Source of the DNA: a virus
Lineage: Duplodnaviria; Heunggongvirae; Uroviricota; Caudoviricetes
Virus record (IMG/VR): IMGVR_UViG_2541047952_000005
Span: 1-10,972 of that record
Length of the DNA: 10,972 nt
Reading direction: 5' to 3' (one strand)
Part shown: positions 1 through 10,972 of the stretch, in pieces
Layout of the letters: each line of letters opens with the position of its first letter
Numbering within the stretch: position 1 is the first letter of the stretch
The notes under the pieces: generated by a model
What the model was told of the DNA's origin: nothing
What the model saw: the letters and a program-made list of their open reading frames with translations, nothing else
Databases searched by the model: none
Position numbers and translations under genes: made by a program

Positions 1-834
1 ATGTCATCTTCCATCAAACAACAGATTAGAGATCGCAGCGAGTACATTGGTTTTATCGAAAAATGTTTTGCAAATGCGCATCAATGCTACGTTGTCCATT
101 ATTCATGTGAATCTTTTTATGATGCTGTGGGCGGTAAATCCACAAGGATCACCTCTATTGCTGTCAGAAATTTAGGCAGTGGGCAAACAGATCATTGGGC
201 TCTTAATAGATCCGCAGAATTATTAGGTCTTGATGTTTCAGATGAAAAAAATCTCGATATCCTTGAGCATCATCTATTAGATAACTACTTTACATTCCTG
301 AAAAGATACGCACAATGCACATTTCTGCATTGGAACATGCGAGATAACAATTACGGATTTCAGGCCTTACAGCATAGATTTTCAGTCCTAGGTGGCGAGC
401 CCTTTATACTTACTGATGACAGAAAACTCGATTTAGCGAGAGCTGCCGTTTCTATATATGGACGAAGCTATATTGGGCATACCGCCAAAAGTGGCCGTGC
501 AGGTAGAATGTTAGCTCTTGTTGAAAAAAATGGTATCGCTGATAAAGATGTCTTAGCCGGCGCTGAGGAAGCCGAGGCATATGTCAAAGGTAAGTATAGA
601 GAGCTAGAAATGTCTACATTACGAAAGGTCGACATACTCTGTAATATTGCTGAGCGGATTCATGATCGTACTCTCAAAACTAACAATAAATGGTTTTGGC
701 CAAGAAGCTGGCATCCATATTGGTTAACGATGAGGCTCAAAGAACACCCATTAGTGACTGGATTAATAGTTTTAGGGATTTTCTTAGGTGTAATTACCAA
801 AGGTCTAGATCTATATGCTTGGTGGCAGCAGTAA
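1..834 (+). CDS. hypothetical protein, 277 aa, with one predicted C-terminal transmembrane helix; function unknown
   Basis: ORF open from position 1 (ATG at 1-3; the true start could lie upstream of the window) to TAA at 832-834. C-terminal hydrophobic stretch LVTGLIVLGIFLGVITKGL suggests a membrane anchor. No family recognised by eye. Confidence 0.5.
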   Translation: MSSSIKQQIRDRSEYIGFIEKCFANAHQCYVVHYSCESFYDAVGGKSTRITSIAVRNLGSGQTDHWALNRSAELLGLDVSDEKNLDILEHHLLDNYFTFLKRYAQCTFLHWNMRDNNYGFQALQHRFSVLGGEPFILTDDRKLDLARAAVSIYGRSYIGHTAKSGRAGRMLALVEKNGIADKDVLAGAEEAEAYVKGKYRELEMSTLRKVDILCNIAERIHDRTLKTNNKWFWPRSWHPYWLTMRLKEHPLVTGLIVLGIFLGVITKGLDLYAWWQQ

Positions 835-1078
835 AATGGGGTGTCAGGTCTTTATCGGGACACTGATACGGGGAAAGTTACAATACTGAGGCTGGTTCAC
901 GCTCAGAGCGTCAAAATTGTCCGTCACAGACTCGTCGCATCTGCACTTAATCCATATGACACGGATTGGACAGATTATATCCGATCCCGAACCACGCGTC
1001 TGACTGCACCTGCCGCATCATTTCACAGTGGTGTTTGATAAGGCTTGAGCCGTGTGAGCTGGAAACTCTCACGCACGG

Positions 1079-1104
1079 TGAATCGCCACGGATAATCTAG
1101 ACAC
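1079..1104. repeat. IS terminal inverted repeat (end distal to orfA)
   Basis: TGAATCGCCACGG... matches the reverse complement of the other terminus at 2282-2307. Confidence 0.8.
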
Positions 1105-2005
1105 TTCCGAGCCGTTGATAATACTGGTTTTCATATTCTGTCGGTGACATCTGATCGCTGGAACCATGCCGACGCTTACTGTTATAAAACATTTCGATGT
1201 AATCAAAAATATCGCTGCGGGCTTCTTCCCGCGTTCCGTAGATCTTTTTCTTTATCCGTTCGCGTTTCAACAACTGGAAAAAGCTTTCTGCAACCGCATT
1301 ATCATGGCAGTTACCGCGACGGCTCATGCTGCCCTCCAGGCCGTGTGATTTCAGGAACGACTGCCACTCATGGCTTGTGTACTGACTGCCCTGATCCGAA
1401 TGAACCAGCACCTGTTTTTGGGGATTACGGCGCCATACAGCCATCAGCAGTGCGTTCAGGACAATGTCCTTTGTCATCCGGGATTGCATGGACCAGCCGA
1501 TAATTTTGCGTGAGAACAGATCAACAACCACGGCAAGATACAGCCAGCCTTCGTGGGTCCTGATGTAGGTTATGTCCGTTACCCAACGCTTATCCGGAGC
1601 ATCCGGATTGAACTGTCGCTGGAGCCTGTTGGGCGACACGATACTGGCCTCGCCTTTACGTGCCCGCGGGCTCCGGTATCCGACCTGAGCCTTTATCCCG
1701 ACACGTTTCATCAGTCGCCAGACTCTGTTCACTCCGCACTGTTGCCCGCTGTCCCGCAGATCCAGATGGATTTTGCGATAACCATAGACGCATCCCGATT
1801 CCAGCCAGAACTGTTTAATCTGCCCTGTCAGCCTCAGGTCTGCCTGATGGCGTTGTGAATGCGGCTGCTGAAGCCAGGCGTAAAAACCACTGGGATGAAC
1901 ATCCAGCACCCGACAGAGCAGGCGAACAGGCCAGCAACAGGTGTTGTCACGGATAAAGGCGTACCTCAGTCGGACAGCTTTGCGAAGTACGCCGCGGCTT
2001 TTTTT
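1097..2005 (-). CDS. IS3-family transposase OrfB (DDE catalytic domain), expressed as an OrfAB fusion by programmed -1 frameshift
   Basis: DDE motifs in the translation: WVTDITYI, VLVHSDQGSQYTS, NAVAESFF. The orfB frame has no ATG of its own and stays open upstream through the minus-strand heptamer A AAA AAA G (plus-strand T-run 1999-2005) near the end of orfA. The track's 1097..1909 start is an internal GTG. Confidence 0.85.
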   Translation of the reverse strand, partial: KKSRGVLRKAVRLRYAFIRDNTCCWPVRLLCRVLDVHPSGFYAWLQQPHSQRHQADLRLTGQIKQFWLESGCVYGYRKIHLDLRDSGQQCGVNRVWRLMKRVGIKAQVGYRSPRARKGEASIVSPNRLQRQFNPDAPDKRWVTDITYIRTHEGWLYLAVVVDLFSRKIIGWSMQSRMTKDIVLNALLMAVWRRNPQKQVLVHSDQGSQYTSHEWQSFLKSHGLEGSMSRRGNCHDNAVAESFFQLLKRERIKKKIYGTREEARSDIFDYIEMFYNSKRRHGSSDQMSPTEYENQYYQRLGSV

Positions 2006-2244
2006 AATATGTCCCGTTCGTCGGTAACCCGCTTCAGCTCTTTCTGGAGACGGCGGATCTCGGCCTGAGCATCTGACTGTTCTTTATTAGCGGAAGAATC
2101 CGGACCGTACTTCTTTATCCAGGCGTAAAGGCTGTGGGTGGTGATATCGAGACGTGTTGCAACGCTGGCAACAGAATAACCGCGATCAACAACCTGTTTG
2201 ACTGCTTCAATTTTAAACTCTTCGGGATAACGCTTACCGCTCAT
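1966..2244 (-). CDS. IS3-family transposase OrfA (helix-turn-helix DNA-binding subunit)
   Basis: Track ORF 1966..2250 begins at a GTG; an ATG at 2244-2242 preceded by GAGAGGTG is the more likely start (MSGKRYPEEFKIEAVKQVVDRGYSVASVATRLDITTHSLYAWIKKY...). Typical OrfA with HTH and a C-terminal leucine-zipper-like region ending just past the slippery site. Confidence 0.85.
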   Translation of the reverse strand: MSGKRYPEEFKIEAVKQVVDRGYSVASVATRLDITTHSLYAWIKKYGPDSSANKEQSDAQAEIRRLQKELKRVTDERDILKKAAAYFAKLSD

Positions 2245-2281
2245 GGGCACCTCTCTTTAAGCCATCTTAAATGACTCTGAG

Positions 2282-2307
2282 GTGTCTGTTAAACCCGTGG
2301 CGATTCA
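2282..2307. repeat. IS terminal inverted repeat (end proximal to orfA)
   Basis: ...CCGTGGCGATTCA; its reverse complement matches 1079-1091 exactly and 1092-1104 partially. Confidence 0.8.
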
Positions 2308-2361
2308 CGGTTCTTAGAGGGGGCGTTGAAGGTAACTTCGGTGCCCTACTCGACAAGACCG

Positions 2362-2708
2362 AAGATAGCAAAAAAACAACCCTACTTCATTCACCGAACT
2401 GATGGGTAGCCAATATTCATGGCGGCAATCGGCAGCGCCCCTTCGAACGTAGTGACGAGGCCGAAGGTTTTTTAATAGTGACGTCTGCGGCCGATGAAGG
2501 CTTGGTTGATATACACGACCGACAGCCACTTGTATTGTCACCGGAGGCAGCCCGGGAATGGGATGCGCCAAGACGCCGAGGCAAGGAAGCAGAAGCGATT
2601 ACCGACTACGGTGCCGTGCAAGCTGACAAGTTTATCTGGCATGCAGTTACGCGAGCGATGGGTAATGCGAAAAATCAAGGTGAATATCTTATTGTTTCAA
2701 TTGAATAA
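2362..2708 (+). pseudogene. SRAP / YedK-like (SOS-response-associated peptidase) gene remnant: 5'-truncated, one in-frame TAG, one frameshift
   Basis: Frame 1 from about 2362 reads ...KKQPYFIHRTDG*PIFMAAIGS with TAG at 2407-2409. After the C-run near 2438-2441 the similarity continues in frame 0: PFERSDEAEGFLIVTSAADEGLVDIHDRQPLVLSPEAAREW... to TAA at 2706-2708. This resembles my recollection of the C-terminal half of E. coli YedK, including the His-containing HDR motif. The N-terminal half with the catalytic Cys2 is absent. From memory, not searched. Confidence 0.55.
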
Positions 2709-2733
2709 TAATGTTTTTACCTCAAATTAGCAT

Positions 2734-2739
2734 TATACT
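2734..2739 (+). promoter_or_regulatory. possible -10 element (TATACT) for the AT-rich ORF at 2786
   Basis: TATACT lies 47 nt upstream of the ATG in an AT-rich leader; no good -35 at 17-bp spacing. AGGA at 2771-2774 is a plausible ribosome-binding site. Weak call, since AT-rich DNA gives many chance matches. Confidence 0.25.
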
Positions 2740-2785
2740 ATTTCATGCTTTATTTACACCTCTTTAAATTAGGATAACAATTATA

Positions 2786-4534
2786 ATGGAAAACTCTAAT
2801 AGCAATTTGATTGTAAAAATAGTTCATCTTCTACAATCCGAAAGAGATGGACTTATTTTTATTGATGGAAAATGGGGAACAGGTAAAACTTTTTTTATTA
2901 AAAATGTATTTCCTCGTTTTTATGATCTTAATGTGTTTTATTATATTTCATTACTAGGCGTTAAGTCTCTTGCAGATTTCAAAGCAAAGATTATTGACTG
3001 CTACTATCTTCAAGATATAGACACTCTTAAGTCTGGGTTAGATACTATTTCTGGTTTGGGTAGTGTAAGCAGTGGTTCTCCCGCTAGTGCCAATGTGCTT
3101 AATGGTGTGTTCAGTTCCATTGGTTCAAGTGTAAGAGAGAACATACTCTCCAAACTCAGTGGCATATTTATATTAGATGACATTGAGCGATTAAGCACTC
3201 CCTCACTGGCCAATGAAATACTAACTTATTGTCATTCGTTATATTCAACCTCAAAAATCTCTAGTTTGGATTTTATTGTTATATCTAATACATCTGCCGA
3301 ATCCCACCTGTCATTAGAACATAAAGAAAAAATTATTTCTGATTCACTTCATTACAACCCAAACCCTCGCGACATATTAGATATGAGAATAATTGAAGAA
3401 AAACTACAGTACTTCCCCACTGAAGACAAAATGATTTTCGAAGAAATAATATCATACCATAACATAGTTAACATAAGAATTTTAATGAGGTGTTTAAATA
3501 CTGCACTTCCATTATATTTACACGCAGAAAACCACCCTGAACTAGAGTGGAAAATCGCCTCTAAAACCATACTAAGCTCAATTTTGTCATATTTTATCTT
3601 GTTATTTATCCATAACAAATCCATGGACGAACTGATCATTGACAGCATCCAGCATATCCCACCCCAAAATTCCAGCAGCGATGAAAATCCACATGAACCG
3701 AGACTTTTGTCTACATTACACAATTATAAAATTAATATTCACCTTAAAAATTACTACAGTGGTCATGTTTCTCTTTATGATATATTGGACGATGTTTTTT
3801 ATGTGCCAACACCTTTAAGTACAATTGATATTGCAGTTTCAACTCGACCAGAACTACAGGAGACAGATGAAAAAGAATTTTTCCCCACGATTATTGGTTT
3901 AATTTCTAGAACAATACCATGTGATTTGCACCAATGGCTTAGGGCGGTTCAGAACTATGAATATTTGACTTATCATAAATATCTTCCAAAATCATCATTA
4001 CTAACATTGCAGTTCATGAGTTCTAAATCACTCGAATTTAGTGACGAGGACATTATTACTTACTTTGAATTTCATAACAACAATCCAATCAGTAGTTGGA
4101 CTAGTGGCTTTGATGATGGGAAACTTATATTTTCAATATTATCAGGCCGTCATAATAATATTGAAAAGAGAAAAAACTTAAAGACAATTAAGGAAATTAT
4201 TGAAACTGATGGTTGGGCTTTATTTGATGTTAACTTATTACTCAAATTAGATCCCATGGGAAACTATAAAACGCTAGAAGTACTTGGCGCACCATTTTTG
4301 ACCAAGTGCATTTTAAAAGAATGGAGCATTAAAGATATAGAGCAATTCAACGCTTTTTTAAGAAGTAATTATAGAATTAGTAACATATCTCAGTTTGCCA
4401 CAAATGAAAAGCAGCGCCTTATATACCTCAATCAAAAACTTGACATTTATTTCATAGGTAAGCAAGAAAGTTTTAAATATGGCGCGATATATGATTTAAA
4501 CAATACAGTAAGACACGCAATTTCTTGCCTATAA
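2786..4534 (+). CDS. KAP-family-like P-loop NTPase, 582 aa, AT-rich, horizontally acquired; candidate phage-exclusion/defence protein
   Basis: ATG at 2786 with AGGA upstream; TAA at 4532-4534. Walker A GKWGTGKT (aa 28-35) has the G-x-W-G-x-G-K-[ST] form typical of KAP NTPases; Walker B-like GIFILDDIERL about 100 aa later. The C-terminal roughly 430 aa are unrecognised and rich in N/I/K/S/Y. Composition visibly more AT-rich than all neighbours. Confidence 0.6.
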   Translation: MENSNSNLIVKIVHLLQSERDGLIFIDGKWGTGKTFFIKNVFPRFYDLNVFYYISLLGVKSLADFKAKIIDCYYLQDIDTLKSGLDTISGLGSVSSGSPASANVLNGVFSSIGSSVRENILSKLSGIFILDDIERLSTPSLANEILTYCHSLYSTSKISSLDFIVISNTSAESHLSLEHKEKIISDSLHYNPNPRDILDMRIIEEKLQYFPTEDKMIFEEIISYHNIVNIRILMRCLNTALPLYLHAENHPELEWKIASKTILSSILSYFILLFIHNKSMDELIIDSIQHIPPQNSSSDENPHEPRLLSTLHNYKINIHLKNYYSGHVSLYDILDDVFYVPTPLSTIDIAVSTRPELQETDEKEFFPTIIGLISRTIPCDLHQWLRAVQNYEYLTYHKYLPKSSLLTLQFMSSKSLEFSDEDIITYFEFHNNNPISSWTSGFDDGKLIFSILSGRHNNIEKRKNLKTIKEIIETDGWALFDVNLLLKLDPMGNYKTLEVLGAPFLTKCILKEWSIKDIEQFNAFLRSNYRISNISQFATNEKQRLIYLNQKLDIYFIGKQESFKYGAIYDLNNTVRHAISCL

Positions 4535-4541
4535 ATTGGCA

Positions 4542-4580
4542 TACTAAGTCTCAGCCGAATTGTATAACTGAGACTTAGTA
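4542..4580. terminator. stem-loop between convergent genes (13-bp stem, 13-nt loop); putative bidirectional terminator
   Basis: TACTAAGTCTCAG (4542-4554), loop CCGAATTGTATAA, then CTGAGACTTAGTA (4568-4580), a perfect inverted repeat. Lies between the end of the AT-rich ORF (4534) and the end of umuC (4658). No clean U-tract, so efficiency is uncertain. Confidence 0.45.
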
Positions 4581-4657
4581 ATCAAAAATAAGAACATTTG
4601 ATTTATCGTTTCTAATAAACTCATCCACCGTTTTCCGAAGAATCTGTCACCGGAAAA

Positions 4658-5926
4658 TCACCTGACAACGGGTAGATCAGAGAATCGGGTGGTGTAACGT
4701 GGAGAAAGTATTTCCCGTTTCATCTGCCACTGCTGCTGGATACCCTGTCCTGCAAAATACAGCGTCCCCCTCCCGCCTTTGGCATTGAGGTGATCCAGCA
4801 CTTCCATCAGTTTCTCACTGCCCGGGCGCGGCGCGTTATCATCGAACAAGTTGAGCTGAGCCACGCCCTGACTGAAGAAATCACCCAACATCACCCCGGC
4901 TTTCTGATACCGATATCCGTCTTGCCATATGGCGTCCAGACAGCGGATGGCTGCACTGATGATATCCCGACTGTCCTGCGTAGGCGTCAGAAGCTTCACG
5001 GAGGCATTATTGCCATAATAGGGCTCGTTCAGTGCGAACGGGCTGGTCTTCACAAACGCCGAGATAAAACGGCAATACTGGTGCTCGCCACGCAGTTTCT
5101 CTGCCGCCCGCGAGGCATAGCTGCAGATCGCCTGGCGCATCTCTTCATACTCCGTGATACGACCGCTAAAAGAGCGGGAACAGATAATTTCCTGTTTCAC
5201 TGGCGCGAATTCTTCCAGTGCCAGGCAGGGTTCTCCGCGTAACTCACGCACCGTTCGCTCCAGCACGACATTAAAATGTTTACGGATAAAACGGATGTCC
5301 GTATCAGCGAGTTGCAGTACGGTCTTGATCCCCATCGCCTCCAGTTTTTTCGAAATACGCCGACCGATGCCCCAGACTTCATCAACCGGCAGCGCGGCCA
5401 TCAGTTTGCGCTGGCGATCGACACTGGACAGGTCTACCACCCCGCCCGTCTGCCGCTGCCATTGTTTGGCCGCGTGGTTGGCCAGCTTGGCCAGCGTCTT
5501 GGTCTGGGCAATGCCAACACCCACTGTCAGATGCGTTCGCTGCAGAACAGTAGCACGGATTTCACGGCCAAAATCAGTCAGATCACGACAGTTACGTACA
5601 CCAGTGAGGTCACAAAATGCCTCGTCTATCGAGTAAATTTCACAGCGCGGCGACATTTCTTCCAGCGTGGTCATCACCCGGTTAGACATATCCGCATACA
5701 GCTCATAGTTGCTGCTGAAGCACACCACCCCATGGCGCCGGAAAAAGTCCTTCTGCCTGAAGTACGGCTCACCCATTTTGATACCCAGTTTCTTTGCCTC
5801 TGTGCTGCGGGCAATAACACAACCGTCATTGTTGGAAAGCACCACAACCGGCCTACCTTTGAGATCCGGGCGAAATACAGTTTCACAGGAGGCATAGAAC
5901 GAGTTCACATCACACAACGCGTACAT
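4658..5926 (-). CDS. umuC: UmuC, error-prone translesion DNA polymerase V catalytic subunit (Y-family)
   Basis: Near-full-length similarity to E. coli UmuC as recalled ([22 protein letters not shown]...[11 protein letters not shown]...[19 protein letters not shown]...[11 protein letters not shown]...). The track start at 5932 is a TTG; ATG at 5926-5924 matches the UmuC N-terminus and lies 2 nt after the umuD stop. Confidence 0.93.
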
Positions 5927-5928
5927 GA

Positions 5929-6348
5929 TCAACCCGTCGATTTCACGATGAACGTCACCACACCAAAAACATCGAGCGTTTCTTCGCTCCCGATGATGAT
6001 AGGCGACCAGGCGCGGTTTTCAGGGTTAAGCTGGACAGTTGGCCATAACTGTAGGCGCTTAACGGTAAATTCCCCGTCCACCGCAGCAATAACGATATCG
6101 CCGTGCTCTGCCTTGCGTGAACTGTCCACTACCAGTAAATCGCCTTCGCCGATCCCGGCATCAATCATCGAGTCACCAGATGCCTTAACGAAGTACGTGG
6201 CGCTGGGGTGTTGTATCAGTAGCTCGTTAAGATCGATACGCTGTTCAACGTAGTCCTGAGCAGGGCTTGGGAAACCACAGGGTACAAGATCGCCATAGAG
6301 TGGAAGCGGCTGCACTGCACGCAACCCGGAGGGAGTGAAAAACTGCAT
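5929..6348 (-). CDS. umuD: UmuD, LexA-like S24 self-cleaving accessory subunit of Pol V
   Basis: Cleavage-site context VPCGFPSPA, active-site FVKASGDSM and TVKRL lysine region are all present, resembling E. coli UmuD. The track start at 6363 is a TTG; ATG at 6348 (MQFFTPSGL...) aligns with the UmuD N-terminus and has GGTGA 5 nt upstream. ATG at 6351 is an alternative. Confidence 0.93.
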
Positions 6349-6367
6349 CATAATCACCGTCAATTAA

Positions 6368-6387
6368 TACTGATATTATATACAGTA
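6368..6387. promoter_or_regulatory. LexA (SOS) box upstream of umuD
   Basis: TACTGATATTATATACAGTA, i.e. CTG-N10-CAG with an AT-rich centre, close to the consensus TACTGTATATATATACAGTA; 20 bp upstream of the umuD start. Confidence 0.8.
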
Positions 6388-6455
6388 GTTTTTATTTAAA
6401 CGGAGATCAATGGCATTAGCCACCATCAGTCATCATCGTCGCATAACTCAATGAT

Positions 6456-7007
6456 TTACCTGGTTGCCGGAAATTTTTTATATAGCGTCGATATCCCAAC
6501 ATCGTAAATTAATGCCACACGCTGTCGTGATTCACCTGCTGCAACCAACCTTCCTGCCTGCGCCCACTGTTCATCAGTTAGCTTTGATCGACGCCCACCT
6601 ATTCGCCCTTCTTCACGAGCCGCAGCCAATCCCGCCCTGGTACGTTCGACTATCAGCTCCCTTTCCATTTCGGCAAGTGCGCCCATGACATGGAAGAAAA
6701 AGCGTCCCATTGGTGAAGACGTATCTATGCTGTCGGTCAGGCTGCGAAAGTTAATACCCTTTTCCCGAAGCTCCTCCACCAAAACGACAAGATGCCGCAT
6801 GCTGCGACCGAGTCGATCCAGTTTCCAGACCACCAGCGTATCGCCTTCAGACAGAGTCCTGAGTACTTTCTTCAACCCCGGTCGGTCAGACGTTCTGCCG
6901 CTGATCTTATCCTCGAATATCAGTTCACATCCTGCGCACTCCAGTGCGTTTCGTTGCAATGCGGTGTTCTGGTCATTTGTTGACACACGTACATAACCGA
7001 TGAGCAT
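6456..7007 (-). CDS. serine-recombinase DNA invertase (Pin/Gin/Hin/Cin family)
   Basis: MLIGYVRVSTNDQNT... (catalytic Ser in VRVST), ...DTLVVWKLDRLGRS..., ...SPMGRFFFHVMGALAEMERELI..., C-terminal HTH ...ALIYDVGISTLYKK; close to E. coli e14 PinE as recalled. ATG at 7007 with AGGGG upstream. Lies immediately outside the invertible segment. Confidence 0.93.
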   Translation of the reverse strand: MLIGYVRVSTNDQNTALQRNALECAGCELIFEDKISGRTSDRPGLKKVLRTLSEGDTLVVWKLDRLGRSMRHLVVLVEELREKGINFRSLTDSIDTSSPMGRFFFHVMGALAEMERELIVERTRAGLAAAREEGRIGGRRSKLTDEQWAQAGRLVAAGESRQRVALIYDVGISTLYKKFPATR

Positions 7008-7073
7008 GAGAAATACCCCTGTAAAAAGCCGGGATCATGCCATCTGAGCGGAATAACTGCATTTTCTAAAAGG

Positions 7074-7094
7074 TTGGTTTGGGAGAAGCCAGAT
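7074..7094. repeat. inverted repeat / recombination crossover site, invertase-proximal
   Basis: TTGGTTTGGGAGAAGCCAGAT is the exact reverse complement of 8510-8530 (21/21). Embedded in a 26-bp imperfectly palindromic site 7062-7087, TTTTCTAAAAGG TT GGTTTGGGAGAA, resembling gix/hix-type sites. Confidence 0.8.
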
Positions 7095-7417
7095 ATGTCA
7101 TTCAGCGAGGAGCTAATGTCAATGGAGCATGGATACGCTGGTCAGATGGTGCAATAGAAGTATTTGGAACTGGTGGTTCCAATGATAATGGGCTGGCTAA
7201 AGTCGTTTATCCAATTGCACTACCTAAGCTTTCACGTTTTATCAGCATAGCGGAAAGAATAAGAACAGATTACGAGGCCACACCTAATAACGTTCACGTT
7301 TCAATGATCGTGGATGACCAGGTCAGTAATACAGGTTTTTATGTCCGCTGCCAGATGTACGACGGAAGACCATCAACAAGTGCTTTTTCCTGGAGAGTTT
7401 ATTGTGCGCCTGTTTAA
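7076..7417 (+). CDS. silent alternative tail-fibre C-terminal cassette (about 113 codons), no start of its own
   Basis: Reading from the crossover core: GLGEARYVIQRGANVNGAWIRWSDGAIEVFGTGG...RVYCAPV, TAA at 7415-7417. Its first codons (GLGEAR) duplicate, in inverted orientation, the fibre sequence at the other crossover site, so inversion would give an in-frame fibre of about 210 aa. The track's 7079 start is a TTG inside the repeat. Confidence 0.6.
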   Translation, partial: GLGEARYVIQRGANVNGAWIRWSDGAIEVFGTGGSNDNGLAKVVYPIALPKLSRFISIAERIRTDYEATPNNVHVSMIVDDQVSNTGFYVRCQMYDGRPSTSAFSWRVYCAPV

Positions 7418-7601
7418 TCCTGTTACTTTGACTGAAGTAATCCCCGGTCTTCATGACGTGACCGGGGCTGTGGAATTACCAGAAGATAACTGGTTTTTTA
7501 CTGCATCTGAAATCCCTGAAGGAATGGAAATATCTGTTAACGAGAAGGGCGAACCCATTCTGATTGAGATTAAACCATCTCAGGTGGAACTGGCCAGATA
7601 A
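7404..7601 (+). CDS. small ORF (65 aa) paired with the silent cassette; possible alternative fibre chaperone, unverified
   Basis: GTG at 7404 with GGAGAG 6 nt upstream; TAA at 7599-7601. Its position immediately after the silent cassette mirrors the tfa position after the active cassette. No recognisable Tfa motif. Confidence 0.35.
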   Translation: MRLFNPVTLTEVIPGLHDVTGAVELPEDNWFFTASEIPEGMEISVNEKGEPILIEIKPSQVELAR

Positions 7602-7836
7602 CCCCCGGCGCGGTGCTGGTATCTGCTTCCATCACCGCGTCGATATTACCAACATCATATTCAGTCATTTCCGGTTCCGGTGGTGCTATAAACTCTCCGT
7701 CAGAATAGAACCAACCGACGCCTGCATCTATATGATCAACATTTATAATTTCGCAATTAGAGAATAAATCACCCTCTCCATCCCAGATAATAATATTTTT
7801 CACCACGCCATGTTCAATCAGAGCAAAATTACTCAT
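7570..7836 (-). CDS. tail-fibre assembly protein (Tfa-like chaperone), 88 aa
   Basis: C-terminus ...EADTSTAPGVIWPVPPEMV resembles the conserved C-terminal motif of lambda-type Tfa proteins as recalled. Start ATG overlaps the fibre stop (TGATG). Shorter than typical Tfa, so possibly internally deleted. Confidence 0.65.
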   Translation of the reverse strand: MSNFALIEHGVVKNIIIWDGEGDLFSNCEIINVDHIDAGVGWFYSDGEFIAPPEPEMTEYDVGNIDAVMEADTSTAPGVIWPVPPEMV

Positions 7837-8819
7837 CAGGCATACTCCTCAACAATAACTATTCCCGGGGCACCGTCACCTCCCGATTGAGCCTCACTTC
7901 CAGCAGGTGCGCAGGCTCCGCCTCCGCCAGCACCAAAGCCCTCAGCTTTACCACCACCACGTCCTCTGAATGATGAAGAACTTGCACCACCTATACCGCC
8001 TGAACCTAATGGTGTATCCCCCCCGGTACCACCTGCTACAGCTTTAACAGAGATAACCATTGCTCCTGGTGTTTTTGCACTACAGCGAAATGCTCTTAGT
8101 ACAGTGCCGGACGATGTCGGACTGGCACCCCATGAAATACCCTGAATATATGATGTGTTTGCAGATGCTCCCCCCGCGCCACCGCCTGTACCACCAGGTG
8201 CAGTTATCATGGAACCGAAATAAGTTGTGCCACCTTCACTACCTGAATTTCTTCCGGCTCCCCCCCCTTTACCTGCAGCACCGATAATAACGTTGACTTC
8301 GAAATCATTATCAACCTCGAAAAATGCTTCAATAAATGCGCCGCTCAATCCAGCTCCGGCTGTTGCCTGCTGATTTTCTGTTGTTTCAGGAACCCCACCG
8401 CCGCCGCCGCCACCACCAGAGGCAATGACCCTTATCTTTTTTGTCCCTGGTGTTGGGATATATTTTCCAGAGCTTTTAAAAATATTCGTGTTTAACAAAC
8501 GACCAGAGAATCTGGCTTCTCCCAAACCAAGGTTTTCGAGAGCCGTTTTCACCGTGCCGTCCGATTTGATATCGCCAAACGGATTCTTGCGGCTTAACAG
8601 CAGCGCACGAAGCGCGGTAAGCAGCTGGTCATGCCGCCCCTTCTCCAGGCTGGCACCGGACGCCTCCACCACGCTACAAAGTTCTTCCTGCAACATATCA
8701 AAATAGTCATCATCCAGATCGGTGGCAGGTGTGCCGGTCTGGGGGTTACCACGGGTAAAACCGTTCTTACCCGCGCCGAACTTATCCTTCTGCGCGGTTT
8801 TCGTGTCTATGCGATGCAT
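7836..8819 (-). CDS. phage tail-fibre protein, 327 aa: conserved N-terminal about 97 aa plus glycine-rich C-terminal domain in the current orientation
   Basis: ATG at 8819-8817 with GGAG upstream. N-terminus [21 protein letters not shown]... is of the e14/Mu-like side-tail-fibre type. The C-terminal 230 aa lie inside the invertible segment and are Gly-rich (GGGGGGGG, GGTGGGAGG, GAGGGGA). Confidence 0.88.
8510..8530. repeat. inverted repeat / recombination crossover site inside the tail-fibre gene
   Basis: ATCTGGCTTCTCCCAAACCAA, partner of 7074-7094. The 26-bp site 8517-8542, TTCTCCCAAACC AA GGTTTTCGAGAG, has palindromic half-sites and lies at fibre codons about 94-102 (ENLGLGEA). Confidence 0.8.
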
Positions 8820-8822
8820 GGA

Positions 8823-9407
8823 TTACTCCGGATATTTAAAAATTACGTAGGTATGCGACGGGCAGAGTTTGTTAAGCACACATTCGACGACGGTGTCGCC
8901 CCAGATACGCAGTGCGGAATCACAGGGAGCACCACATGTCATCCAGGTGGTGTTGGTGGCGGATGGCATGTTGACCTGCCAGTAATACCGCCATTCCGGC
9001 GCATTCACCGCGTCAGTACAGGCCGATGAGCAGGTGAACGTGCTTTTGTCGTATCGCGTGATGGTGGCGTCTGGTCTGCCCAGGGCAGCAAGCTGTGCAA
9101 GGTAAAAATCCTCATTGATGCCGCCCGCCAGGTTAACCTTCGCATCCAGCCGTTGCTGACGCTGGCGAAGGGTCTGCGTCCCTGCGGGAATACATTCATC
9201 CGGCAGGCCGCACAGACGCTCCCAGCGATTTATCAGTTCAGTGGTGGTACGCGGATCCAGCTCCCGCATCAGGGCATCCGCACGCTGATGAACACGGGTT
9301 AATGACGGTGCCGCACCGGCAATCGCCGGATCGCTGGCTGACCATGCCGGACCGGGCGGCAACAGTGCCGATAACAGGCGGATGTAATCATCGTTTGTCA
9401 CGTCCAT
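8823..9407 (-). CDS. phage tail/baseplate protein (Mu gp48 / P2 gpI-like, DUF2313-type)
   Basis: 194 aa. Assigned by position between the baseplate-J-like gene and the tail fibre and by the N-terminal [15 protein letters not shown]-type motif. Overlaps the upstream gene by 10 nt. Confidence 0.7.
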
Positions 9408-10456
9408 GAAATCGTCCCCAGAACCGCCAGTTCATTTTTCGCAATGGAGATATTGTCTGCCGGTGCAAGCAACTGATGGCTGTATTCCCCGTTCGCACCG
9501 GAAATCGCTTCACTGATACGCGATACCTTCAGTTCTCCCTGCGGATAACCATCACGCAGCAGGAACGAACGCAACTCTGCGGTGATGGCAGCCCGTATTT
9601 CCGGTGTGTCCGGCGTCACGCGGATATGAAAATCCACCGTATGCGCCACCGGCCTGAACACATACAAATCAGAACCTGCCACCGGGGCCAGTGGCTCGAT
9701 GTGTTGTCGTACTGCCGTTTCCGTTGACTCTTCCGGAATGGGATTAATCAGGTCACTGCCGGCAATCATCACACCGACAGTTCCCGTTCCCATCCAGTGG
9801 CGGTATGTCCATGCGCGGGTAATGCCGGGCACTTCTTTAGCCCAGACGACATAGTCCCCGTCAGCCCCGCCCTGCGGCGTCCAGTAATACCGCTCAATGA
9901 CGCGGGCGCGCCACGTTTCCAGCTCTTCAGTATCAAATCCGCCTGTCAGAGTGTCAGCCACACCGGAAGACGGCAGACCATTCACCGGCGTGACCAGGAT
10001 TAATGCCGTACCGTCGTCAGCGTTACCGACCGCGCCTGCACTTGAGCAGGCGATCGGCACGCGCAGGACACCACCGGAGCTGGTTGCATCGGCAGTTGCC
10101 GTGTACTGAACCAGGTCATCGCGCTGAATAACACTCCCGGCAGTCACTTTCAGGCCATCGCTGACACCTTCCCAGCGCATATACCCGCTGGCAGCCGTGG
10201 CCCCCTTGCGCGGACACCGTTTCATCGCAGCATGTCGCGCCAGCCAGGACTCATCGCACAGGTCAGGAAGCATGTTCATTGCCAGATAATCGATGTAACC
10301 GTAAACCGTATGCAGCGCCGCCGCATACACCTTTGCCCGCACGTCTTCATCCATGCGCCGGAGCGTGTCGCTGACGTCCAGCCTGGCGAATAAATCGTTA
10401 CGGAGCATACTGATATTTTCTGCCAGCGTCGGGCGCTGAAATTCACTGTCCGCCAT
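9398..10456 (-). CDS. baseplate J-like protein (Mu gp47 / P2 gpJ family)
   Basis: 352 aa, GC-rich, translationally coupled to both neighbours. Assigned by size and conserved order (gp46-like, J-like, gp48-like, fibre, tfa, invertase). Confidence 0.75.
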
Positions 10457-10871
10457 GCGTTATCGCACTCCACAGATCATCAAAAGAAATCATTACCGGT
10501 CCGTCACGACGCCAGAGAGTGATACTGTTACCCAGTTCATTAATCCCGGTGCGGCGGATATCCAGATCAATACGGGACACCACGCCGTCATCAATCATCC
10601 ATTGCAGGCATTCGCGGATATACCCCCTTACCGTCAGCACCAGCTGATTGGTCAGTTTGCTGCGCTGAAGCAGCCACAGCCGGGAGCCGTAACGGTCATT
10701 CTGTACCGCAGGCCAGGTATCCCCCCACCATCCCATCGGGACGTCGGCGTTGTCATCAGGCTCCGCCCGCCGCCAGGTAAACAGGGAAATCACCACGGCG
10801 CGGGTCAGCGGATCCAGCGGTGCGCTGGCGCAGGTGCGTTTACCGTTCACCGTCAGCCACAGTTCCATCAT
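10443..10871 (-). CDS. baseplate protein (Mu gp46 / P2 gpW-like)
   Basis: 142 aa; start ATGATG at 10871 overlaps the upstream stop (ATGA); 14-nt overlap with the J-like gene. Assigned by synteny and size. Confidence 0.65.
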   Translation of the reverse strand: MMELWLTVNGKRTCASAPLDPLTRAVVISLFTWRRAEPDDNADVPMGWWGDTWPAVQNDRYGSRLWLLQRSKLTNQLVLTVRGYIRECLQWMIDDGVVSRIDLDIRRTGINELGNSITLWRRDGPVMISFDDLWSAITHGGQ

Positions 10872-10972
10872 GCCTCCATCGCTTTATCAGGTTTGTCGGT
10901 GTTACTGCCCTGACCGTTCTCTCTGTGACGATGCCCGTTATAGGCAAGCCGCATCGCTGACATGGTGGTGCC
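10868..10972 (-). CDS. 3' end of an upstream tail/baseplate gene (possibly baseplate assembly V / Mu gp45-like); partial, runs off the window
   Basis: Minus-strand frame open from the window edge, ending ...NTDKPDKAMEA with TGA at 10870-10868 overlapping the next start. Not in the ORF track because no start is in the window. Confidence 0.4.
   Translation of the reverse strand, partial: GTTMSAMRLAYNGHRHRENGQGSNTDKPDKAMEA

Follow-up and report, generated by a model that had tools for sequence, protein, structure and literature searches.

A umuDC operon inside an ssrA-integrated Escherichia coli prophage, very probably carried as a phage moron

Background

Does a umuDC operon that adjoins a prophage invertase gene travel with the phage, or is it the ordinary locus of a host in which a prophage integrated next door? 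The question is posed by a stretch of 10,972 nucleotides (positions 1 to 10,972 of the IMG/VR record IMGVR_UViG_2541047952_000005, here called the window), whose umuDC pair a preliminary description had taken for a horizontally carried mutagenesis cassette of the mucAB or rumAB kind, possibly prophage cargo. Mobile additional Pol V-type operons are familiar from mucAB (pKM101), impAB, samAB and rumAB of ICE R391, and can raise SOS mutagenesis in their hosts.

That error-prone polymerases are associated with mobile elements and prophages is documented (Permina et al. 2002, cited in PMC6511836; Hare et al. 2014, PMC3978071). In the inducible prophage CP5 of Acinetobacter baumannii ATCC 17978, a umuD-rumB moron lies between the tail genes and the integrase and is induced by DNA damage in a recA-dependent manner (Hare et al. 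2014, PMC3978071). Here we report that the window operon is likewise enclosed in a prophage, and that prophage umuDC cargo, though real, is an arrangement common among enterobacterial prophages that has been documented before.

Results and discussion

The operon and its control region

The stop codon of umuD and the ATG of umuC are 2 nt apart (Table 1); RefSeq starts umuD at 6348 rather than at the first ATG (6351). UmuD matches Peptidase_S24 (2.7e-29), and UmuC matches IMS (2.1e-42), IMS_C (2.1e-24), IMS_HHH (1.7e-07) and DUF4113 (5.2e-23), with both the Y-family polymerase domains and the UmuC-type C-terminal domain present by Pfam. Aligned with the canonical E. coli proteins, to which they are 86.5% (UmuC) and 72.7% (UmuD) identical, the window proteins keep every catalytic and processing residue checked, as the claim of intact catalytic motifs had it: the catalytic carboxylates D6, D101 and E102, F10, the steric gate Y11 and the beta-clamp motif QLNLF in UmuC, and in UmuD the cleavage site C25-G26 and the Ser/Lys dyad S61 and K98 (C24-G25, S60 and K97 of E. 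coli UmuD). Against the copy in Citrobacter Awk4, dN/dS is 0.09 for umuC and 0.18 for umuD. Both frames are intact and, by these ratios, under purifying selection, and the encoded Pol V is probably active. PADLOC returned no matches for UmuC, UmuD or ORF1, and hence no hint that the cassette is a catalogued defence system.

Table 1. Features of the window discussed in the text
Feature	Positions	Strand	Remarks
Att-nearest gene (ORF1)	1..834	+	277 aa; no Pfam or PADLOC match
IS3-family insertion sequence	1080..2305	-	RefSeq annotation
SRAP/YedK-like (SOS-response-associated peptidase) gene remnant	2374..2708	+	Pfam SRAP 1.7e-07
KAP-like P-loop NTPase gene, AT-rich	2786..4534	+	Pfam KAP_NTPase 8.6e-07
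15-bp perfect inverted repeat	4542..4580		between convergent umuC and KAP-like genes
umuC, Y-family DNA polymerase V catalytic subunit	4658..5926	-	422 aa
umuD, S24 self-cleaving subunit	5929..6351	-	140 aa from first ATG
Spacer, invertase stop codon to umuD start	6352..6455	-	104 bp
LexA operator TACTGTATATAATATCAGTA (predicted)	6368..6387	-	overlaps -10 element TACTGT (6382-6387)
-35 hexamer TTGATC (putative)	6405..6410	-	read from sequence; 17 nt upstream of TACTGT
Pin/Gin/Cin-type serine invertase, prophage tail-fibre switch	6456..7007	-	Resolvase 7e-51, HTH_7

The predicted operator differs from the K-12 umuDC operator at two positions of the 20-mer, and none of 200 shuffled sequences contained a match. 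A looser pattern, CTGT-N8-ACAG with one mismatch, was found 3 times against 3.3 expected; as it does not rise above chance we rejected it as evidence, and only the full 20-mer is informative. One of the two changes turns ACAG into TCAG, at a position that is well conserved in LexA boxes. The box had been called near-consensus, which is fair given two mismatches to K-12, but it is not perfect. With these two departures from the K-12 box, one of which falls on a conserved half-site position, the operator could give weaker LexA repression of the prophage operon. In all related umuDC copies examined, a LexA box occupies the equivalent relative position.

The umuDC promoter escaped a sigma-70 consensus scan and was identified through alignment with the canonical E. 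coli operon, whose promoter shows the same TTGATC/17-nt/TACTGT layout. TTGATC also stands upstream of umuDC in four related loci. The hexamer probably serves as a -35 element, and the prophage operon is probably regulated by LexA. The invertase stop codon (6456-6458) lies on the same strand at the distance in Table 1, close to the 110 bp first estimated. No intrinsic terminator was predicted by a terminator scan of this spacer, whose RNA fold (z = -1.3) contains no GC-rich hairpin with a U run after it; as far as the sequence goes, read-through from the invertase gene into umuD would be permitted.

Position within a prophage at ssrA

The window matches the chromosome of E. coli Res13-Sevr-PER07-33 (NZ_CP062811.1), where ssrA sits 173 bp to its left. 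The 3' end of ssrA forms attL, and attR lies past the integrase, beside ypjA, at record positions 1186702-1186890. This direct repeat of about 190 bp (91% identity, with a 47-nt perfect core) consists of the ssrA 3' end and its downstream flank, and it encloses umuDC, which the att comparison thus places 4.8 kb in from attL within a prophage of about 43 kb. IMG/VR delimits the same element, with the cargo arm included. From ssrA to the invertase gene, no further att copy was found and the annotation shows no integrase.

The prophage is of the e14/SfV-like type, with an HK97-type head, a Mu-type contractile tail and a Pin tail-fibre switch, and its annotations include a LexA-family repressor and a Q-family antiterminator. 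The invertible segment (7065-8539) has the opposite orientation in the otherwise identical RefSeq record. The operon is co-oriented with the late genes and occupies the arm between the tail-fibre invertase and attP.

Further along this arm, umuC converges on the AT-rich KAP-like gene, as first described, at a distance of 123 bp. The inverted repeat between the two genes (RNA fold of 4530-4665, z = -2.9) is a possible bidirectional terminator, although one without a clear U tract. The KAP-like gene has a GC content of 31-34% against about 53% in umuDC; its KAP_NTPase match covers the N-terminal P-loop only, and PADLOC lists it as candidate PDC-S49 (7.8e-14). Among all loci examined it occurs only in copies of the ssrA prophage, where it fills a variable slot from umuC to the SRAP remnant. 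This remnant is the C-terminal part of the gene (profile positions 152-213 of 214) and a pseudogene according to RefSeq. The IS3-family element, missing from three other copies of the prophage, is evidently a late insertion into the cargo arm, and ORF1 is limited to the three E. coli genomes with the ssrA prophage.

An additional and mobile copy

Elsewhere on this chromosome lies the canonical fadR-nhaB-dsbB-umuCD-hlyE locus. The prophage copy is flanked not by hlyE and dsbB, as was remarked early on, but by the invertase and KAP-like genes, and was found in 3 of 5,426 complete E. coli genomes, each time at ssrA. Synonymous sites are saturated between the window operon and the canonical gene. 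In a neighbour-joining tree of UmuC (one alignment, one distance model), the window protein grouped with that of Awk4, whose copy also follows an invertase gene, in 200/200 bootstraps, and the dsbB-linked Escherichia clade was recovered in 200/200 with the window excluded. Saturation and this exclusion rule out a recent duplication of the host umuDC. The idea of a horizontally carried cassette was borne out: the window holds an additional, horizontally carried Pol V copy, prophage-borne and outside the canonical clade.

The same invertase and flanking DNA recur, at 97-98% identity, in about 11 genomes, and in the two of these that were inspected the backbone sits at a tRNA-Pro gene. There the invertase is followed by the LexA box, ~90 nt from the start of umuD, a remnant of the UmuC C-terminus and an intact SRAP gene (76% identical in DNA to the window remnant), with the operator further decayed. 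A near-identical backbone that holds a deleted umuDC remnant at another site indicates that the cargo travels with the phage, in line with its description as prophage cargo. The cassette is not required for phage functions and varies among phages sharing the backbone, being only a deleted remnant in the tRNA-Pro relatives; because these sister lineages lost umuDC by deletion and the ssrA lineage lost SRAP, selection on the cargo appears patchy. In Awk4, 89.7% DNA identity extends from the umuC stop codon through the LexA box, where the match ends, and the invertase gene adjoining its umuDC is only 69% identical to that of the window.

Recurrence in other phages and comparison with known systems

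DNA searches of phage and plasmid collections returned umuDC at only ~75% identity, and protein-level searches were needed for closer relatives. The UmuC proteins of vB_SosS_Oslo (Salmonella), PHB10 (Escherichia), ENT39118 (Cronobacter), CobraSix (Enterobacter) and ST846-OXA48phi9.2 (Klebsiella) are 76-90% identical to that of the window, and the LexA box TACTGTATATAAAAACAGTA is present in the three of these phages checked for it (Oslo, PHB10 and ST846-OXA48phi9.2). In the four genomes inspected (Oslo, PHB10, ENT39118 and ST846-OXA48phi9.2), umuDC follows the tail-fibre genes on the same strand; it precedes the integrase in the first three and lies near the record end in the last. SRAP is also nearby in PHB10 and ST846-OXA48phi9.2. 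At least 599 IMG/VR contigs encode close umuDC relatives, mostly near a contig end; among the best 80 of these, a Pin-like gene lies upstream in 51, fewer than 6 kb remain beyond umuC in 73, and one is the same prophage as the window.

The backgrounds of these cassettes differ. Oslo, PHB10 and ENT39118 have lambda-like tail genes (a J-type tail-fibre protein, cor, or placement in Hendrixvirinae) and other integrases, whereas the window belongs to an e14/SfV-like myovirus backbone at ssrA; it further differs from the named phages in the invertase gene directly upstream, the inserted KAP-like gene and the degraded SRAP. Within its own phage type a parallel is e14, which is integrated at icd and carries pinE followed by mcrA adjoining its att site. 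Homologues of ymfK, ymfL, ymfQ, ymfR and ymfT are annotated in the ssrA prophage, and in both elements accessory cargo immediately follows the tail-fibre invertase, at the end close to att. The cargo itself is unlike, a restriction gene in e14 and umuDC, a KAP-like NTPase gene and an SRAP remnant here, as is the site (icd versus ssrA).

The likeness to mucAB and rumAB held in its functional and ecological part and failed as family membership. Most plasmid-borne homologues are only ~62-65% identical to the window UmuC, the best reaching 90% (a Klebsiella plasmid), in a comparison that covered the matches from a plasmid collection. The window UmuC is 85-95% identical to phage-linked and 86-87% to E. 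coli UmuC; by these identities it stands apart from the plasmid/ICE Pol V branch, and its location is chromosomal, in a prophage. By sequence, UmuDC of the window belongs to the enterobacterial chromosomal and phage group. Unlike mucAB, impAB, samAB and rumAB, its carrier is a temperate phage and not a conjugative element. With K-12 umuDC (dsbB-umuDC-hlyE) it shares the two-gene operon, the promoter layout and a LexA box over the -10 element, and it differs in lying in the ssrA prophage, additional to the canonical copy, and in the two operator changes. The umuD-rumB cassette of CP5 is comparable as an error-prone polymerase pair forming a prophage moron, but it belongs to a distant sequence group (UmuC homologues of Acinetobacter phages are ~35-41% identical to the window UmuC) and is regulated by UmuDAb rather than LexA. 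In the literature we found genome descriptions and the Acinetobacter work, and no functional studies of enterobacterial phage-borne umuDC.

Alternative explanations

Could the prophage simply have integrated beside the species' ordinary umuDC, with att sites that leave the operon outside? The identity of UmuC to the canonical E. coli protein and the shared promoter and operator layout are what one would then expect, yet the canonical dsbB-umuCD-hlyE locus is separate in the same genome, att repeats enclose the window copy, 5,423 of 5,426 genomes lack it, and synonymous saturation and the bootstrap exclusion from the canonical clade set it apart; the synteny comparison leaves this reading refuted and with practically no chance. 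Alternatively, the DNA from ORF1 to umuDC might lie outside the phage genome, as an independent integrative island, now decayed, that sits in tandem between ssrA and the prophage. Tandem elements are known to occur at ssrA, and the arm is a compositional mosaic, with its AT-rich KAP-like gene, and holds an IS element and a pseudogene. We nevertheless rejected this reading, which seems very improbable: ssrA to invertase gene contains neither an annotated integrase nor an extra att copy, the order invertase-umuD'-umuC'-SRAP accompanies the same backbone at tRNA-Pro, umuDC takes the equivalent position in sequenced phage genomes, and the IMG/VR boundaries take in the arm. A phage-carried operon is what these observations favour.

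Such an operon might still be a relic on its way to decay: its integrity would be fortuitous, its repression poor or its expression absent, and its contribution nil. The two operator changes, the deletion of most of the operon and further operator decay in the tRNA-Pro lineage and the SRAP pseudogene in the ssrA prophage all point that way; we consider it improbable, however, because both frames are intact with all checked functional residues, dN/dS is low on the branch to the nearest relative, and the -35/spacer/-10 layout is conserved. The phage could also be the main beneficiary, with read-through from the late operon or the invertase gene during lytic growth supplying translesion synthesis on damaged phage DNA, in effect a phage-encoded Weigle reactivation, more or less independently of LexA. 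Weigle reactivation of lambda requires host umuDC, and this possibility gains from the shared orientation of umuDC and the tail-fibre and late genes, seen in the window and in each of the four inspected phage genomes, from the same-strand invertase gene upstream in 51 of the best 80 of at least 599 IMG/VR loci, from the spacer without a predicted terminator and from the Q-family antiterminator of the prophage. All copies examined have retained the LexA box, which speaks for the importance of control by LexA, and a host that already has umuDC gains only dosage; we regard a mainly phage-directed role as rather unlikely.

A second Pol V operon as a phage moron

Taken together, the module of LexA operator, umuD and umuC (1.73 kb, ~4658-6390) is very probably a moron of a temperate phage of about 43 kb integrated in the ssrA 3' end, and gives the lysogen a second Pol V operon. 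The position within the element, the recurrent arrangement, the operator sequence, the integrity of the genes and purifying selection on them are shown by the DNA. In the module a promoter and operator are recognisable by sequence, and a 15-bp hairpin, without a U tract, is found downstream. By analogy with deposited phage genomes, which carry the cassette at the same position, it would be packaged with the virion.

The mechanism we infer is modelled on the known E. coli pathway. LexA bound to the operator over the -10 element would keep the operon off; upon DNA damage, activated RecA would bring about LexA self-cleavage and umuDC transcription, RecA-stimulated self-cleavage of UmuD at Cys25-Gly26 would yield UmuD', and UmuD'2C would perform error-prone translesion synthesis with the beta clamp. 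Since the prophage repressor is annotated as LexA-family, the same damage signal would also induce the phage. Who benefits from the prophage Pol V may be suggested from this model, in which the polymerase could serve the damaged host chromosome and replicating phage DNA alike.

A variable slot between umuC and SRAP

Between umuC and the SRAP gene lies a hypervariable slot in which anti-phage defence systems are often found. Across 20 related loci it measures 0.65-5.4 kb, and 32 of the 33 ORFs of at least 100 aa within it have no look-alike in another locus. Recognised occupants are Borvo, PD-T7-1, Shosta, DRT UG17 with SLATT, a type I-A retron, an Aga-like nuclease and MqsA. It seems to us an evenly balanced proposition that umuDC and a convergent SRAP gene are the conserved borders of an anti-phage defence hotspot, at the genome end between the tail-fibre genes and attP of many enterobacterial temperate phages, of which the KAP-like NTPase, possibly an uncharacterised defence gene, would be one occupant. 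A description of a defence hotspot bordered in this way was not found in the literature.

Conclusions

Because the association is already documented and the cassette annotated in several deposited phage genomes, the present finding adds an example rather than a principle. In the search for defence genes of enterobacterial prophages, the umuDC/SRAP pair may be a convenient anchor. A lysogen with two Pol V operons could have raised damage tolerance and SOS mutagenesis, for example when livestock-associated E. coli are exposed to fluoroquinolones or other DNA-damaging stress, and the phage could carry Pol V capacity from host to host.

A second umuDC operon inside a prophage

The umuDC operon in the window is a second copy, lying inside an integrated element. 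The window corresponds to part of the chromosome of E. coli Res13-Sevr-PER07-33 (NZ_CP062811.1; pig faeces, Quebec), and the sole difference between the two is an inverted tail-fibre segment; as they are otherwise identical, the Pin-type invertase is evidently functional in this strain background. To the left of the window, at a distance of 173 bp, is the end of the tmRNA gene ssrA, after which come a 277-aa ORF, an IS3-family element, the remnant of a gene for an SOS-response-associated peptidase (SRAP, YedK-type), a KAP-like gene, umuC, umuD, the invertase gene, the invertible tail-fibre segment, Mu-type baseplate and tail genes, an HK97-type head, a P27-family terminase, lysis genes, a Q antiterminator, replication genes, a LexA-family repressor (ymfK-like) and the integrase. 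A further KAP-family NTPase gene, the prophage's second, lies on the opposite strand in the interval from the Q antiterminator to the holin, which is likewise a typical place for a moron.

The att sites are direct repeats of ~190 bp, an unusual length, with 91% identity and a 47-nt perfect core. They comprise the last 38 nt of ssrA and the ~150 nt that follow it, terminator hairpin included, so the phage brings its own tmRNA 3' end and trailing sequence. The second repeat lies directly past the integrase, adjoining ypjA; each end has one copy of the core, and none was found between the ends. Together the repeats enclose ~43 kb, with umuDC beginning 4.8 kb in from the ssrA-proximal end, and the ordinary fadR-nhaB-dsbB-umuC-umuD-hlyE locus is present in the same chromosome ~1.6 Mb away. 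The preliminary description had proposed a horizontally carried prophage cassette, against the possibility of a conserved chromosomal locus left outside the att sites; the enclosing repeats, the separate canonical locus and the operon remnant in relatives at tRNA-Pro (see below) support the former.

Features of the window and of related loci (L-numbers denote extracted genomic loci, with coordinates internal to each; other coordinates are those of the window unless an accession is given)
Feature	Coordinates	Strand	Remarks
ORF closest to att site	1-834		277 aa
IS3-family element	1080-2305		inserted in cargo arm
SRAP/YedK-type gene remnant	2374-2708		att-side border of slot
KAP-like gene	2786-4534	+	AT-rich, 31-34% GC
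umuC	4658-5926	-	422-aa Y-family polymerase; Pfam IMS 2.1e-42, IMS_C 2.1e-24, IMS_HHH, DUF4113
umuD	5929-6351	-	140-aa S24 peptidase; Pfam Peptidase_S24 2.7e-29
LexA operator 20-mer	6368-6387	-	TACTGTATATAATATCAGTA
-10 element TACTGT		-	overlapped by LexA box; 17 nt after -35
-35 element TTGATC	6405-6410	-	17 nt before TACTGT
Pin-type invertase gene	6456-7007	-	Resolvase 7e-51
Invertible tail-fibre segment	7065-8539		inverted relative to NZ_CP062811.1
30-nt inverted repeats of segment	7065-7094 and 8510-8539
att repeats	L001 15392-15583 and L002 16703-16891		just outside window
Second KAP-family NTPase gene	NZ_CP062811.1 1199633-1200964 (L002 29634-30965)
Deleted umuDC remnants (tRNA-Pro prophages of E. 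coli AR_0128 and APEC20/16)	L091 8640-9060 and L092 7398-9060
Related slot loci	L018 9282-12582, L113 7512-9771, L135 8842-10065, L140 8728-10860, L146 7407-9306

Intact genes under a canonical promoter layout

Alignment with the canonical E. coli proteins gives 86.5% identity for UmuC, which retains D6, F10, Y11, D101, E102 and the beta-clamp motif QLNLF, and 72.7% for UmuD, which retains the Cys-Gly cleavage site and the Ser/Lys dyad; the catalytic motifs first read as intact are confirmed at these residues. The reported near-consensus LexA box has two changes relative to the K-12 umuDC operator, a level of match reached in 0 of 200 shuffles, and one of the changes (ACAG to TCAG in the right half-site) makes it a good box, not a perfect one. 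The arrangement of -35, 17-nt spacing, -10 and LexA box is identical to that 5' of the canonical operon. The neighbours are also as described: the invertase gene ends 104 bp before umuD on the same strand, and umuC converges on the AT-rich KAP-like gene across a 123-bp spacer containing a 15-bp perfect hairpin.

Descent and distribution

The closest relative of the operon is found on a contig of Citrobacter sp. Awk 4 (UmuC protein identity 94-95%), on which umuDC is immediately preceded by a Pin-like gene and accompanied by phage genes for baseplate and tail. At the DNA level the two copies agree at 89.7% over the stretch bounded by the umuC stop codon and the LexA box; past the LexA box the match ends, and the invertase genes are only 69% identical, so that the unit of exchange is operator, umuD and umuC. 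A neighbour-joining tree of 46 UmuC sequences, the phylogeny earlier proposed as a check, places the window copy with Awk4 in 200/200 bootstraps and never inside the dsbB-linked Escherichia clade (itself 200/200). Synonymous sites are saturated in every comparison but that with Awk4 and, marginally, that with canonical E. coli umuC (dS 2.8); dN/dS against Awk4 (0.09 for umuC, 0.18 for umuD) indicates purifying selection. The suggested likeness to plasmid mucAB and ICE rumAB holds functionally but not as family membership, since most plasmid-borne UmuC homologues are just 62-65% identical, the top match, on a Klebsiella plasmid, reaching 90%.

This umuDC copy occurs in 3 of 5,426 complete E. 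coli genomes, each time at ssrA. Strain SZQ1 has retained the cargo arm and lost most of the prophage, and the IMG/VR copy and those in SZQ1 and CP55_Sichuan lack the IS3 element. The ORF closest to the att site, which had no match in Pfam or PADLOC, occurs, the IMG/VR copy apart, only in the three E. coli genomes that harbour this prophage.

The same invertase gene and flanking DNA are present at 97-98% identity in ~11 further genomes. Two were inspected, E. coli AR_0128 and APEC20/16; in both, a tRNA-Pro gene is the integration site of a prophage with matching backbone. The match to the window spans the invertase gene, the spacer, the LexA box and the first ~90 nt of umuD, and resumes at the last ~150 nt of umuC, revealing an internal umuDC deletion; two small genes and an intact SRAP gene adjoining the tRNA follow. 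Decay has thus been opposite in the two branches, with umuDC intact and SRAP degraded in the window, and umuDC deleted and SRAP intact at tRNA-Pro. Based on this shared order, the arrangement invertase-umuD-umuC-(slot)-SRAP-att is ancestral to the phage lineage, regardless of integration site.

A variable slot between umuC and SRAP

In related loci, SRAP follows umuC at distances of 0 to 5.4 kb, and the interval is hypervariable: 32 of the 33 ORFs of at least 100 aa, from 20 loci, have no look-alike in another locus. Known defence systems are frequent there in related prophages, strong PADLOC or Pfam matches including a type I-A retron (RT, ATPase, HNH), Borvo, PD-T7-1, Shosta, a UG17 reverse transcriptase with SLATT, an Aga-like nuclease, MqsA and a PIN-domain protein. 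The occupant in the window, the KAP-like NTPase, matches the PADLOC candidate family PDC-S49 at 7.8e-14. With umuDC and SRAP as its borders, the slot resembles a defence hotspot, which we regard as a lead; no description of such a hotspot was found by literature search.

Regulation

The pathway regulating umuDC and DNA polymerase V is established in E. coli. By analogy, LexA would repress the window operon, RecA-stimulated cleavage of LexA would de-repress it, and UmuD would be converted to UmuD', allowing UmuD'2C to perform error-prone translesion synthesis. As annotation places the prophage repressor in the LexA family, the same signal would be expected to induce the phage as well. The sequence would also allow read-through from the invertase gene into umuDC; no terminator was predicted in the 104-bp spacer, umuDC is co-oriented with the late genes in all loci looked at, and the prophage encodes a Q antiterminator. 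The presence of the LexA box in every umuDC copy examined nevertheless argues that LexA control matters.

Phage-borne relatives

Close relatives of UmuC are encoded by Klebsiella phage ST846-OXA48phi9.2 (90% identity), Enterobacter phage CobraSix (86%), Salmonella phage vB_SosS_Oslo (85%), Escherichia phage PHB10 (85%) and Cronobacter phage ENT39118 (76%). In all four phage genomes inspected for gene order (Oslo, PHB10, ENT39118 and ST846-OXA48phi9.2), umuDC comes after the tail-fibre genes and shares their strand, as in the window; it precedes the integrase in the first three and lies close to the record end in the last, and SRAP is also nearby in PHB10 and ST846-OXA48phi9.2. At least 599 IMG/VR viral contigs carry close relatives. 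Among the best 80 of these, a Pin-like gene lies 5' of umuDC on the same strand in 51, and SRAP lies 3' of umuC in convergent orientation in 39; 73 end less than 6 kb past umuC, and one is the same prophage lacking the IS3 element.

A umuD-rumB moron between tail genes and integrase was described in an inducible Acinetobacter prophage, where its induction by DNA damage is recA-dependent (Hare et al. 2014, PMC3978071), and an Enterobacter phage satellite was noted to carry a umuDC cassette in a 2026 survey (PMC13612085). Permina et al. 2002, as cited in PMC6511836, treat error-prone polymerases together with mobile elements. Given these phages, contigs and published cases, phage-borne umuDC is an already known kind, to which the window adds one more member. 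The recurrence of SRAP beside umuDC, in many genome loci as well as in these viral contigs, suggests that the two form a recurrent two-part DNA-damage-tolerance module in temperate phages.
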